This document shows positions 17,716 through 49,951 of a DNA stretch of 64,000 bases, one piece after another (position 1 is the stretch's first letter; the number at the start of each line of letters is the position of its first letter). The position numbers and the translations under genes were made by a program. The stretch comes from Octopus vulgaris (lineage: Eukaryota): contig OX597828.1 of the NCBI GenBank assembly GCA_951406725.2, positions 50,096,001 through 50,160,000 on the forward strand, written 5' to 3'. Under the pieces are notes generated by a model that was not told the DNA's origin, made no database searches, and saw nothing but the letters and a program-made list of their open reading frames with translations.

Positions 17716-18692
17716 TACTTTTAGCAGTTATTTCGGGTTCAAGTATGATTCCAGTTCTGAGTTCAGTTCATTAGTTTGTCATTACCATATTCTTACTACC
17801 CACCCAGCTCACCTCCACGTCCACAGAACCATTTCACCGTCTGCTACAAGTTCACCAATCTTGACTGCCATCTACAATATAAAAAGTAACGGGCAGAATA
17901 TGGAGACGGTTTGAGAAGACGGCCAATTATAATGTCTCTGGAGATTAAGTGTTGTTGATTTTACTCACCTCCCCACATATATGTATGCACATCTATCTAT
18001 CTATCTATCTATCTATCTATCTATCTATCTATCTATCTATCTATCTATCTATCTATCTATCTATCTATCTATCTCTCTATCTCTCTCTCTCTCTCTCTCT
18101 CTCTCTCTCTATCTATCTATCTATCTATCTATCTATCTATCTATCTATCTATCTATCTATCTCTCTCTCTCTCTCTCTCTCTATCTATCTATCTATCTAT
18201 CTATCTATCTATCTATCTATCTATCTATCTATCTATCTATCTCTCTCTCTCTCTCTCTCTCTATCTATCTATCTATCTATCTATCTATCTATCTGTATTT
18301 CAGTCTATCTCTCTCTCTCTCTCTCTCTCTCTCTCTCTCTCTCTATCTATCTATCTATTTGAATAGTGAGGGCGTGTGGACTGTAATTCAAGTTTGAGTT
18401 TTCATGTTTTCATGAGTTTTCATGGCTGTAATATCGTGGGTTCAATTTCTGGGCTGTGCAGTGTGATGAACCCTTTGAGTAAGGCACATCACTTCATGTT
18501 GCTAAATCTACTGAGCTAAAAATATGAACCTGCCGAGTGCCGGTGCAGCTCTCTGTCTTTCTCCCCCCACCTCCAGTTACCCATCCTGGATATGTCACTA
18601 GGTCAAAAGTTGGGAGAGTCGAGAGGATCCCTATGCCTCTGCGACTACACAGTCATCTAAAATAATTAGAGGTAAGCTTGGTTCATGTTACC

Positions 18693-18932
18693 TATTTCTT
18701 TATTACCCATAAGGGGCTAAACACAGAGGGGACAAACAAGGACAGACATAGGTATTAAGTCGATTACATCGAACTCAGTGCGTAACTGGTACTTATTTTA
18801 TCGACGCCGAAAGGATGAAAGGCAAAGTCGACCTTCGACCTCGGCGGAATTTGAACTCACAACGTAACGGCAGACGAAATACCGCTAAGCATTTCGCCCG
18901 GCGTGCTAACGTTTCTGCCAGCTCGCCGCCTT
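18693..18932 (-). mobile_element. SINE family C, Tx1-like tail subfamily, with 11-bp TSD ttcatgttacc
   Basis: Head aaggcggcgagctggcagaaacgttag, B box gagttcaaattcc; TSD at 18682-18692 and 18934-18944. Confidence 0.9.
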
Positions 18933-19559
18933 ATTCATGTTACCGAGCCATACCCGCTCGCGAGTGACGATTGGCGTTAAGTTGCTAATCAGAAATAGGA
19001 AACACTGCCGTTTCCAGCTCTGAACCGATGTCTGCCAGAACACACATGAAAACCCAACAAGAAAACACCCTGCATTTAGTGCTTCAGCTGTGTTTCGTGC
19101 ATTTGTTTCTGGTCTAACATTTTAGACATAGTTTCACTTGTCCTTTATCCACAGAGAATGACATGACATCCCATAAACACAACTGAAATGATAATAATAA
19201 TTACACTCTTCCTCCCGCTCCCCCTTTCTTTCAGCAGTGACCTGTGTCTATTTGCAGCTGTATGGACACAACGTGGTCAAGTGGTTACGAGGCTCGCCTC
19301 GCAATCACAAAGATCCTGGTTCGATCACACTACATAGCATCTTGAAAAAGTATTTTTTTTTACTATTGCCTCGGCTTTACTTGTGATTCATGAGTGAAAT
19401 TAGCTAGAGCAGTAATTTTCAACTGTTTTTACCTATGGGCAGTAGCGTAACTAAGGGGGGGGGGGAGGGAAACAAGGGTGGCACGTGCCCCAGGCGCCGA
19501 TTGAGGTGGGGGGCACAGAATTGGCCATAATACTTGAACTTCATTTGTGAGCCGCTCTC

Positions 19560-20165
19560 TGGCTACCTATCTGATGCTTTATATAGCTATGGTGTGACCT
19601 CACCTGGAATTTGCATCACCGGTCTGGAACCCCTATCTTGTCCAGGATATTAATCGTCTGGAAACCGTTCAGCGACATGCAACCAAGAGAATACCCTTCA
19701 TCAGGCATTTGCCATATTCTGAACGCCTTACTTTCCTGGGCATGTATACATTGAAACTCCGACGACTGGCAGCTGACTTAGCAGACACCCACAAAATTAT
19801 TAACCCTCTTACCAACAATAACTCTGAGCACTTTTTCAAACTCCACCTGTCTAACAGCCGTGGACATGTTTACAAAGTCAGAAAACAACACAGCTCCCAT
19901 GACTTTTGGAAACATTTTTTCACGCTAAGAGTTGCTGAAGTATGGAACAAACTGCACTGCATCCTTCAAAACTTCCATGCTTCCTGAGATTCGCCAACAC
20001 TGCACCTGATTTTCTCCCCTCCATACACACGCAAGCATGTATCTGACTCATACACTGTTCACTTCCCAGACATTTGTACAATACTGCATATGCTTTATAC
20101 GCACTTTTGACAAGTTGTGGTGCACCTGAGCACTGTATACAATAATTTCATTATTGTATTATTAT
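19560..20165 (+). pseudogene. CR1-clade LINE 3' end (post-RT region + 3' UTR)
   Basis: PHLEFASPVWNPYL..DINRLETVQRHATK..LPYSERL..L.LRRL..D..RGH..K..FF.LRV..VWN.L; ends in att-rich tail. Confidence 0.88.
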
Positions 20166-20429
20166 TAAAACTGCAATCGTAAAGATGGATCTCCAGCTTA
20201 GCGTTTTATGGTGTTATTGAAGGTAAACACAATATGATGGCTGTCTACATTCATGTCTGGACATTTTTACAAAGCGCGTCAAAAATGGTTTGAGGCTCAA
20301 ATTGAGAGAAATCTGCATATTTTCGCCTTGCACAAATAAGGGTATAAAATTAAGTGTGGTGGTAAACACTCTATATTAAATTTACTTAACCGTCATTTAT
20401 TCATTTAACTGATAATCATTCTTTGTGGT

Positions 20430-20800
20430 GTGGAGGCGCAATGGCCCAGTGGTTAGGGCAGCGGACTCGCGGTCATAGGATCGCGGTTTCGATTCCCAGA
20501 CCGGGCGTTGTGAGTGTTTATTGGGCGAAAACACCTAAAGCTCCACGAGGCTCCGGCAGGGGATGGTGGTGATCCCTGCTGTACTCTTTCACCACAACTT
20601 TCTCTCACTCTTACTTCCTGTTTCTGTTGTACCTGTATTTCAAAGGGCAGGCCTTGTCACTCTCTGTGTACTCGAGAACTACGTTAAGGGTGCACGTGTC
20701 TGTGGAGTGCTCAGCCACTTACACGTTAATTTCAGGAGCAGGCTCTTCCGTTGATCGGATCAACCGGAACCCTCGTCGTCGTAACCGACGGAGTGCTTCC
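20430..20800 (+). mobile_element. tRNA-derived SINE family B (tRNA-Arg-like head; resembles octopus OR-type SINEs)
   Basis: ggaggcgcaatggcccagtggttagggcagcggactcgcgg..ggtttcgattccc A/B boxes; tail cgtcgtaaccgacggagtgcttcca, also seen at 1-27. Confidence 0.85.
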
Positions 20801-47190: not shown

Positions 47191-47764
47191 CTATTTACTA
47201 TCTCAATTGCAGAAATAAATATTGCAGACTTATTGAGCTAACCATTCAAATCAATCTCCGCCAAATAGTCTTCTGCATTAACGTTGTACCGATTCTGCCC
47301 AAGGTAGCCTTTCAAAGGCATTAGTATTTAGGGCGAATCTACATAGCAATAGAAAAGAAAAGGAAAATAAACTACCTCAAAGGCGATGTCTCTCAGAATG
47401 TCCATTTTAGAGAATATTCAGAGAACACATAAGCTTTCGAACATTCGGTACGGAAAATTATTACGTCTTTGTCAAAGTATTTATGGAATCAATAGGTAAA
47501 CAACGTTGAAAATTTCAAAATAATGTAGTGAAACATGCTGCTGCATATGAAAATGTCTTGAATAGAATGTGAAGTGCCTCTTTCTCTCGCTCCCTTTCTC
47601 TTTCCCTTCCTCTCTTCATGTATACGCAGACACACATGCGCACACACTCGCATGCACACACACACACACACACACACATTCTAATTCATAATTTAATATT
47701 CTTTCACGTGTACAACGCTGCACACACCAACAAATAGACTCCATTCTATTTGCATATAATATAT

Positions 47765-47992
47765 ATTTGCTACCCACAAGGGGCTAAACACAGAGAAGAC
47801 AAACAAGGACAGACAAACGGATTAAGTCGATTACATCGACCCCAGTGCGTAACTGGTACTTAATTTATCGACCCCGAGAAGATGAAAGTCAAAGTCGACC
47901 TCGGCGGAATTTGAACTCGGAACGTAACGGCAGACGAAATACGACTACGCATTTCGCCCGGTGTGCTAACGTTTCTGCCAGCTCGCCGCCTT
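47765..47992 (-). mobile_element. SINE family C
   Basis: Similarity; flanking duplication tatttgcatataa. Confidence 0.88.
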
Positions 47993-49238
47993 ATATTTGC
48001 ATATAAGTACCATACCAGCGATCCATTTCGTTTCGAGGGGATCCGAAAACATGGTATTGAAGAGCCACAATAATGGCGAAATGAGCATTTAAACAAAAAG
48101 GGAACAGCAAATGGGCGTTTAAACAAAACGCAAACGCTATATGTGTGCGAATATATATATATATATATATATGTATGTATGGCTGTATGTACATAAATAT
48201 ATGCATGTCTTAAATATTCATGCAGATATATATATTGTTTTATACTTTATCACTGCGTGTAAGAATGTGCAAGGTGCAAATATTCATTTTAACATTGTCT
48301 TCTCTCATGTTGTGAGGCGTGTCTATACAAGCAATCTTCTAGTTATAATACCAGAAAATCACATGCATAAACACATACACACACACAAGCACATATACAA
48401 ACACTCACACATACACTCACACACAGACACACACACACAGCACATTTGAATATTTATTGATCATACCTTTGTGTTTTAGCGTTGTAAACTGAATGATGTG
48501 GTAAGAATCGAGAAACGATCTTGAGTCACAAATGTCAGTATACATTACTGGAAAATTCGACATCATCCTTACCTTCTTCAAATATCGTTTCTTTGAGACT
48601 CATATTCATACGGTAATTTGGAGCTAAAGCGATGCTGGGTGCAGGCTATTTTTGTTAAATAACATATTTACAGAAATCAATGAAAAATATTTATGAAACG
48701 AAACTCAAGAAAATATATAAATTAACCACAAAATGGAAGCAATTTACTGTAGTATCAGTGTAGTTCACTCTTTTCAAAGTGCATAACAACATTTGCATGG
48801 AAAAATTTTACTAGTCGCCATTTGCAATTAGCATTCTCATTTTTCTTCTTATATCGTTTCTATATTTTTTTCTTAGAAAAAGGAAACATTTATTTAAAAT
48901 ATTTTTCGATTAAAAGAATTTGAAATACAAAATACAAATATTTATCAATATTTTTTTATGCTCCTTTTATCAAGTTCGTCGACCACTGGTTTCAATTAAT
49001 GGATTTCAGTTAAGTTAAATCGCAAATACTCAGAGGAACCAACTACTTATTTTTTAAATAATAGATTCTGTGTCTAAAGCAAGTGATGTAATTGACAATT
49101 TGCTGTGTATGGATTTGTCTTTGATACACTGGTGGTGGATTTCCGTCGTTTGACGACGAGGATCCACATGTTCACTCAAATAAATGACCTGCTCCTGAAT
49201 TAACATGTAAATGACGACGTTTCACAGACACATGTACC

Positions 49239-49398
49239 TATTTCTTTATTACCCACAAGGGGCTAAACACAGAGCGGACAAACAAGGACAGACATAGGTA
49301 TTAAGTCGATTACATCGACCCCAGTGCGTAACTGGTACTTAATTTATCGACCTCGAAAGGATGAAAGGCAAAGTCGACCTCGGCGGAATTTGAACTCA
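49239..49398 (-). mobile_element. 5'-truncated SINE C inserted into a decayed SINE B tail
   Basis: TSD cacaga(c/t)acatgtacc at 49223-49238 / 49397-49412. Confidence 0.88.
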
Positions 49399-49951
49399 CA
49401 GATACATGTACCCTTAATGTAATTCTTAGGCAGAATCAGCGTCCCGCAATGCGTAACAAGATGAGCCTTTTTTTGAATTACAATCTAGCTAACGGGCCTT
49501 TATACAGTTTCCGTCTACTCAGTTTCATTCACATGGTATGGGTTGACCCGAGGCCGTTGACCTTCCCAAGATGTCACACAGACCCAGGGAAAAGTATTTG
49601 CAAAGTCAACGTCTTAACTATTTGGCCATATTACAACTACATTACAACTACACTAAATTACAATTAAATCAATCACTGCTATTCCAACAAACCAGCAGAT
49701 CTCAGTATATTAAACGTGTGTTAATTTCTGTTATTGAAATCTGAAGGGGTTAATATGTTGACCTCTCAGTTTCCACCGTATCTCTGGTAGTCGGCTATAA
49801 AACATCTTCAACATTTTCTCTCTCAATATGATATCCTTTTATCTCACTAACATGACATTTCTTTCCTGTATCACTCACATGGCATTTTCCTGTCTCATAT
49901 GTTCTGCCTAATTAAAACTACTTCGGTACTTTTGTATCAGCATAATATCTC

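Follow-up and report, generated by a model that had tools for sequence, protein, structure and literature searches.

Whether a short interspersed element can be directed to a four-nucleotide target, and whether such a target is chosen by an endonuclease, by the RNA of the element or by both, is the question raised by SINE C in one 64,000-nt stretch of Octopus vulgaris DNA (OX597828.1 of GCA_951406725.2, positions 50,096,001-50,160,000; this whole stretch is called the window, and coordinates are given within it). SINE C is a non-coding dispersed element of approximately 240 nt, of which six tail-bearing copies, all on the minus strand, were found in the window. C1 (18693..18933), C2 (36128..36360) and C4 (39132..39361) are full length, C3 (38953..39131) begins at an internal GGTA (SINE position 52), C5 (47760..47993) has an altered tail, and C6 (49239..49400) is 5'-truncated with a 5-nt microhomology at its 5' junction. 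C1, C2 and C6 form one young subfamily (Ca) and are mutually 95 to 97.5% alike; C4 and C5 belong to subfamily Cb and C3 to subfamily Cc. A-like and B-like boxes, with one mismatch each, are present in all four SINE C heads, and we infer that SINE C is transcribed by polymerase III. ARAGORN identified no tRNA gene in the head, and neither a tRNA match nor an snRNA match indicative of a U1- or U2-derived head was obtained in Rfam. The central box of SINE C and of SINE A, another SINE of the window, presumably resembles the conserved domain of the Meta/Deu type.

Four junctions of the form TACC|TATTTCTTT had been reported in an earlier note on this DNA (at 18692, 36127, 39131 and 49238), and all four were present. 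Read on the element strand, GGTA follows the tail in C1, C2, C4 and C6; the tail of C3, a copy that had not been counted, joins (GATA)n, which turns a rule drawn from four copies into a share of 4/6. Target-site duplications (11, 13, 17 and 17 bp) were found in four of the six copies. In all three copies that combine a duplication with a GGTA junction, the duplication (11 to 17 bp) starts exactly at GGTA. For C1, it lies at 18682..18692 (3' copy, with GGTA first on the element strand) and 18934..18944 (5' copy; minus strand, 11/11 identical), for C2 at 36111-36127 and 36373-36389 (17/17 identical), and for C6 at 49222-49238 and 49396-49412 (5' copy; minus strand, 16/17 identical). An extra 12 nt at the 5' junction of C2 (36361..36372, no strand assigned) repeats part of the C2 duplication. 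Recurrence of TACC at the far duplication, as claimed before, was thus seen in C1, C2 and C6 and not at 39131, where there is no duplication. Since GGTA lies within the far duplication, the motif was present in the target of these three copies before insertion, and a GGTA that is solely element-encoded was ruled out; its description as target-derived holds to this extent, and GGUA may also be in the RNA. Read along the element, GGTA is preceded in the target by C at C1 and C2 and by G at C6, and the last base of the element itself is A, so that the boundary lies exactly at the first G and the register is fixed.

The two remaining GGTA-related sites were of a different kind. C4 and C3 form a head-to-tail dimer, joined at GGTA, with (GATA)n on either side, and C4 is without a duplication. 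An ordinary insertion into a SINE at 39131 was ruled out, as both a duplication and the 5' part of a host SINE were missing; the dimer likely arose by a jump of the reverse transcriptase, from a cDNA ending in TACC to a second RNA. This dimer join is one of the four cited junctions and needs no endonuclease cut. C5 is flanked by a duplication of 13 bp (47747-47759 and 47994-48006), and GGTAC (48007..48011, minus strand) abuts its outer edge. The motif assigned in the earlier note to the far side of a copy at 47765 does exist (GTACC at 48007-11), outside the 13-bp duplication of an element that starts at 47760. The first 9 nt of the C5 site are common to the C2 site, and the chance of finding the motif within 10 nt of C5 was 0.063 for GGTA, 0.011 for GGTAC and 0.003 for the 9-mer, which was chosen post hoc. 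With GGTAC beside it and no GGTA at its junction, C5 fits recognition at the DNA level followed by loss of 5 nt from the primer; a later deletion is an alternative.

GGTA occupies 0.0023 to 0.0030 of sites, with 293 GGTA versus 666 GATA sites in the window. The probability that any single 4-mer is common to at least four of six random junctions was 4e-6, and for at least three of five it was 3e-4 (post hoc). Seven copies of the sibling SINE A, whose tails differ, served as a control, and GGTA was found in 0/7 within -20/+60 nt of the BLAST-defined ends. A coincidence of small samples or non-independent copies, suggested by numbers of three to six, a single window and a motif picked post hoc, is extremely unlikely, as every copy lies between unrelated flanks with a duplication of its own and the post hoc P value is ≤3e-4. 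The verified events number three and come from a single subfamily, and two of the six junctions are without GGTA. In the available part of PMC4494074, a sequence-specific element is one with one sequence type in >20% of its flanks genome-wide; the GGTA share of 4/6 refers to this window.

We compared the SINE C tail with that of an L1/Tx1-like LINE present in two 5'-truncated copies, T1 (37808..38935, plus strand) and T2 (56600..57088, plus strand), both (2/2) in (TCTA)n and on the same strand. T1 carries zf-RVT (E 3e-7) in a C-terminal piece of ORF2 (37811-38515, plus strand), and its homologues bear RVT_1 and zf-RVT; the RT region is absent from the window copies. The best solved match of the T1 family profile was L1 ORF2p (E 1e-45 versus 1e-24 for R2). 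The searches yielded no named Tx1 reference, and the label Tx1-like is taken from resemblance and from the earlier note. Identity between the SINE tail and T1/T2 was 72 to 82% over 36 to 50 nt in all six copies, and the score was reached by 0/1000 shuffles in 10 of 12 comparisons (2/1000 and 1/1000 for the altered C5). The tails being homologous, the last 40 to 50 nt of SINE C are shared with the LINE 3' end.

On the sense strand, TATC follows T1 and T2 and GATA follows C3, which is separated from the T1 tail by 17 nt. Searching the window revealed no LINE joined to GGTA; T1 and T2, its sole LINE copies bearing such a tail, join TATC. That the (TCTA)n endonuclease of T1/T2 itself serves SINE C with a relaxed specificity, G(A/G)TA, is very unlikely: although the tails are homologous, this is the sole LINE family of its kind in the window, and the GATA of the neighboring C3 is one base off GGTA, the TATC after T1/T2 and the GATA after C3 would require nicks on opposite strands, Ca uses GGTA in 3/3 cases although GATA is the commoner site, and tail identity is only about 80%. 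A partner differing from the (TCTA)n-inserted LINE is plausible from these sequences, because the tails are only 78 to 82% alike over 40 to 50 nt, the ends are unlike and the nicked strand would end in ...TACC and not in ...GATA. This partner probably belongs to a family that is sister to that LINE. Of the earlier proposal of an endonuclease from a different Tx1 subfamily, a separate partner is thus plausible, whereas the endonuclease and a second LINE family were not found.

No TTTT is present within any of the six SINE C copies, and the first TTTT past C2 lies 9 nt downstream. As there is no internal TTTT, polymerase III would run into the flank and place GGUA in the RNA, and GGTA is therefore likely present in both target and RNA. 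An internal 11-mer is complementary to the junction of tail and GGTA in C1 (18744..18754, minus strand; 10/11), C2 (36179..36189, minus strand) and C6 (49290..49300, minus strand), and a 10/11 match was equalled in 55 of 20000 shuffles. The predicted pairing probability of the 11-mer peaked at 0.94 for C2 and 0.98 for C6 and did not exceed 0.07 for full-length C1; C4 and C5 lack a matching stem. For the internal strand of Ca, the pairing energy is -9.1 kcal/mol with the Ca junction and -2.4 with the C3 junction, and for that of C3 it is -7.3 with the C3 junction and -2.9 with the GGTA junction; random 4-mers did equally well in 80/3000 (C3) and 9 to 12/3000 (Ca) cases. Tail folds were mostly no better than those of shuffles (z of -0.6 to -0.9 for Ca), and a stable conserved tail hairpin was rejected, only C4 of six folds having reached z of -2. 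The T1 tail has a TACC stretch upstream, at a comparable place.

We propose, with a probability of about one half, that a Tx1-type protein mobilises SINE C, its endonuclease nicking the opposite strand directly behind TACC, and that the RNA produced by read-through would pair with the nicked end. This model builds on the homologous tails and on three independent insertions with 11- to 17-bp duplications from GGTA, as seen in the window. The partner endonuclease would favour GGTA, perhaps GGTAC(A/T)T, and fix the register of the nick. Flank read-through, suggested by the absent TTTT, would put GGUA behind the tail, where it could pair with the TACC-3' primer and strengthen the preference; the internal strand of Ca, which is complementary, would have the putative role of closing a stem on GGUA.

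Either half of this model could act by itself. Were RNA pairing sufficient, a weakly specific endonuclease would nick many sites, only TACC primers pairing with GGUA would be extended, and one protein would have subfamily-dependent targets (GGTA for Ca, GATA repeats for Cc). The subfamily-matched complementarity and the C4-C3 join, with GGTA and without a duplication, agree with this, and the longer GGTAC(A/T)T match would likewise be explained by a C2-type source whose TTTT lies at +9. We consider it rather unlikely, since the register is the same in 3/3 copies with the entire GGTA inside the far duplication, C5 adjoins GGTAC without pairing at the junction, a matching stem is absent from C4 and C5, and the endonuclease is considered the main source of target choice in this group (available part of PMC4494074). 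Conversely, a distinct Tx1 subfamily could cut GGTA unaided, the internal complementarity being neutral and due to mutation templated by a hairpin at a single master locus, or to Tx1 tail ancestry. The fixed register, the position of C5 beside GGTAC, the TACC stretch in the T1 tail itself and the junction without a stem in C4 speak for this, and the 80 L1-Tx1 families in O. vulgaris (PMC13282606) leave room for a second partner; yet GGUA would be in the read-through RNA whether needed or not, and it would be by coincidence that two subfamilies have matched stems, which makes it not a probable account. A more far-reaching reading is doubtful: the RNA of each subfamily would end in a stem in which the initial bases of the target (GGUA for Ca, GA for Cc) form part of the 3' strand and the 5' strand imitates the DNA primer, nicked DNA would replace the internal strand, and subfamilies would redirect one Tx1-type enzyme, including to the conserved box of other SINEs.

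We also assessed insertion inside other SINEs. C2 lies antisense within SINE A, the 5' part of which (35992..36127, plus strand) ends in the C2 duplication and the remainder of which (36373..36448, plus strand) starts with its 5' copy. The host of C6 is a decayed SINE D body (49142..49238, minus strand) that contains the duplication 49222-49238 and matches positions 20675-20792 of a better-kept SINE D copy (20432..20797, plus strand) at 74% over 118 nt (E 3e-11). No dispersed repeat of the window matched the flanks of C1 and C5. By eye, the C1 flank looks like an old SINE remnant, yet no sequence match, Rfam included, was found. Of three SINE targets named previously, those of C2 and C6 are solid and that of C4 is ambiguous. 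The SINE map is limited to repeats that occur at least twice in the window, and 14% of the 293 GGTA sites fall in SINE-like bodies. That copies land often inside SINEs held for two of three verified sites, which is suggestive only given the GGTA content (P = 0.056), and a significant excess was rejected (counting C4, 3/4, P = 0.011). Carriage of the motif may partly explain hits on SINE bodies; a short hard target motif would explain the nesting of copies and predicts an undescribed GGTA-cutting LINE.

The search for a Tx1 family sharing the GGTA junction, suggested in the earlier note, yielded none in the window or in bacterial and archaeal genomes (0 matches to the SINE junction pattern), plasmids or phages. 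A LINE-profile scan for a GGTA-joining partner gave 65 pattern matches, of which 0 were confirmed, and the supplement of PMC13282606 contained no junction motif. Spurious proteins from the SINE antisense strand in frame C gave 11 matches, seven of them spanning the junction. The Tyr-Leu pair expected from a GGTA junction was present in 0/7 of these, which come from decayed copies, mostly of older subfamilies, and therefore count only against a family-wide GGTA rule. In frame A, one candidate was without a match at 11-121 aa, and two longer O. bimaculoides proteins stop short of the junction.

That a SINE inherits a Tx1 target preference is already known from crocodilian SINEU, which shares its preference with Tx1 LINEs (Tx1-Mar) in the available part of PMC4494074 and thus provides a precedent for our model; the predicted TTTT-less read-through and the internal 11-mer are new here. 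According to the same part of that source, SINEU, like SINE C, inserts into other repeats and may face either way relative to them; its heads are of the U1/U2 kind and its targets are two regions within a single Mariner family, whereas SINE C has polymerase III-like boxes and a short dispersed motif in unrelated hosts. No LINE matching the 3' half of SINEU-1 is given there, whereas the SINE C tail visibly matches a local LINE; a SINEU-like element would share its target with the partner LINE, and T1/T2 join TATC. Kibi, Koshi, Keno and Tx1L are, like T1/T2, sequence-preferring L1-like LINEs, of the Tx1 clade, and insertion of Kibi into (TC)n and of Koshi into (TTC)n is comparable to that of T1/T2 into (TCTA)n; the targets described for the four in that part of PMC4494074 are multicopy genes, transposons and microsatellites, with no GGTA or (TCTA)n target. 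Annealing of RNA to the target has been proposed for SART1Bm and R1Bm (available part of PMC7265360), a precedent for pairing in which an endonuclease-set nick is combined with a short RNA (AGG, GGUU or downstream target sequence). As described there, both differ from SINE C in clade, autonomy and fixed telomere or rDNA targets, with no SINE and no internal primer-mimicking strand. No description of partners or target rules of O. vulgaris SINEs was found in the open-licence literature. OK, OR1 and OR2 are dispersed octopus SINEs, likely of the same host group as SINE A, C and D. In the O. vulgaris assembly, the share of SINEs is approximately 12% (PMC13282606), and the many copies with duplications to be expected would allow a genomic test of the shares of endonuclease and RNA-primer pairing in non-LTR target choice.

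A BLAST search of the window, which is AT-rich and microsatellite-rich animal DNA, with the copy at 18693 as the query identified six tail-bearing SINE copies, all on the minus strand (C1 to C6, starting at 18693, 36128, 38953, 39132, 47760, and 49239, respectively). Diagnostic columns divided them into subfamilies Ca (C1, C2, and C6), Cb (C4 and C5), and Cc (C3); the Ca copies were 95 to 97.5% alike, and pairs with a Cb or Cc member were 86 to 93% alike. The heads carry an A-like and a B-like box, each with a single mismatch, and no tRNA match was obtained for them. Head and body are common to the SINE A siblings, which have a different tail, and two O. 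bimaculoides proteins include the translated antisense strand of the SINE. A 7-nt internal duplication in C1 (18830 to 18845) is missing in the other copies, and two chimeras (24530 to 24748 and 45054 to 45241) consist of a second SINE-like family fused to SINE A sequence.

A GGTA junction (element strand) was present in four of the six copies. The duplications of C1, C2, and C6 (11, 17, and 17 bp, respectively, the last with one mismatch) each start exactly at GGTA, in agreement with the earlier note, which had assigned this motif to the target. Since the target base preceding GGTA is C, C, and G at these three sites and the last base of the element is A, GGTA predates insertion and its register is fixed. 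The fourth junction had likewise been taken for an insertion, but C4 has neither a duplication nor a host head and abuts C3 at a GGTA internal to the SINE itself; C3 joins GATA, and (GATA)n lies on either flank of the pair. The duplication of C5 is 13 bp long, GGTAC lies directly outside its 5' copy, and the site has 9 nt in common with that of C2. With any 4-mer allowed, the chance of agreement was 4e-6 for four of six junctions and 3e-4 for three of five when the C4-C3 dimer was counted as one GATA event, and we regard coincidence as a highly improbable source of the motif. GGTA was near the end in none of the seven other-tailed SINE A siblings, which ties it to the tail. In the young subfamily (Ca), GGTA is a genuine motif that resides in the target. 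On the element strand, the far ends of the Ca duplications (18934, 36373, and 49396) are readable as ending in GA, blurred by microhomology, a possible second-strand preference.

C2 is located antisense inside a SINE A body and C6 in the same orientation inside a decayed SINE D body. GGTA sites within SINE-like bodies numbered 42 of 293 in the window, and finding SINE-body targets at two of three verified sites had a P of 0.056. The nesting that had been described as frequent is real, yet it can arise from motif content, and a preference for SINE bodies is unproven. In a SINE A remnant (33455 to 33495), two antisense GGTAC boxes lie at a spacing of 17 nt without an inserted element, and this arrangement may be a repair scar at the same site as was used by C2.

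The final 36 to 50 nt of the six SINE copies were 72 to 82% identical to the ends of two 5'-truncated, plus-strand LINE copies in (TCTA)n, T1 (37808 to 38935) and T2 (56600 to 57088); the score was reached by 0 of 1,000 shuffles in 10 of 12 comparisons and by at most 2 for C5. Both LINE copies contrast in strand with the SINE copies (18693 to 49400). T1 encodes a zf-RVT domain, and the solved structure nearest to its family profile is L1 ORF2p. For the LINE fragment, the nearest proteins belong to Argonauta hians (56% at 96% query coverage) and Octopus bimaculoides (83% at 20% coverage), and five metagenome-type records also match (60 to 66%). Together with the two O. bimaculoides proteins that include the SINE antisense translation, these matches make an octopod host likely. 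The Tx1 label is putative and fits an L1-like LINE with a target preference. Such preferences occur in Tx1 families, and SINEU has its target in common with its Tx1 LINE, Tx1-Mar (PMC4494074). O. vulgaris has 80 L1-Tx1 families, 13 of them recently active, and the covered parts of that paper hold no analysis of their targets (PMC13282606). A Tx1-tailed octopus SINE is described in none of the covered parts of PMC4758252, PMC4824008, PMC9115989, PMC3747384, PMC5786205, PMC10294476, PMC3531059, PMC8967140, and PMC13295347, nor was one found elsewhere in the open literature; Repbase, subscription papers, and some supplements could contain a report.

Internal TTTT was absent from all six SINE copies (nearest downstream TTTT, 9 to 307 nt beyond), so a Pol III transcript, if made, would extend into the flank with GGUA behind the tail. 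About 50 nt from the end, all three Ca copies (one observation, given a common master) carry an 11-mer complementary at 10 of 11 positions to the junction formed by GGTA and the seven bases that end the tail, a match seen before the test was chosen and equalled by 55 of 20,000 shuffles. Predicted stem probabilities were up to 0.94 in C2 and 0.98 in C6 and at most 0.07 in C1, and no matching stem was found in C4 or C5. The Ca internal strand gave -9.1 kcal/mol with its own GGTA junction and -2.4 kcal/mol with that of C3, and the C3 strand gave -7.3 kcal/mol with its own junction and -2.9 kcal/mol with GGTA. Given the missing TTTT, the 11-mer, and this subfamily-matched pairing, it is very likely that GGTA followed the tail of the Ca master, and the motif was probably present in the RNA as well as the target. 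GGTA within the SINE consensus, which the earlier note had set against a target motif, is therefore not an either/or matter. An RNA contribution to target choice is a live, testable addition.

We favor, at a probability of about 0.5, an endonuclease that would fix the nick at GGTA, with pairing of SINE RNA and primer reinforcing site choice. Recognition at the DNA level is favored by the constant register and by the position of C5 beside GGTAC, and RNA pairing as the sole selector of the target is unlikely. A role for pairing is favored by the expected read-through, the predicted stem, and the dimer that lacks a duplication, and the distinct Tx1-subfamily endonuclease proposed earlier, acting alone, is equally unlikely. 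RNA-target annealing has been proposed for SART1Bm and cited for R1Bm (PMC7265360). We infer the enzyme behind the motif, and no partner LINE was found in the window or open collections; nicking by the (TCTA)n enzyme with relaxed specificity seems quite improbable. The C4-C3 dimer would most simply be a template jump from cDNA with a TACC end, the alternative being insertion and then loss of the host head.

Eleven spurious proteins translate the SINE antisense strand, and Tyr-Leu, expected from GGTA, was found in none of the seven that cover the junction. These proteins, possibly from other species, are decayed, may be spliced at the junction, and mostly resemble older subfamilies, and they argue weakly against a family-wide rule. 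This is in line with the window itself, in which Ca alone follows the rule cleanly.

The window also holds a 5.6-kb (TTCT)n array of about 1412 units (7556 to 13187), an RT fragment (22516 to 23289; RVT_1, E = 8e-8), and part of a mariner-type transposase (55501 to 55935; Transposase_1, E = 2e-5). An open frame of 424 amino acids (1671 to 2945) had no Pfam match at an E of 1e-3 and, by eye, resembles a Penelope-type RT end with a GIY-YIG domain. Two features are miniature-DNA-transposon-like, namely, long inverted repeats with 160-nt arms (96%; 31805 to 32165) and a self-complementary stretch (14358 to 14560).
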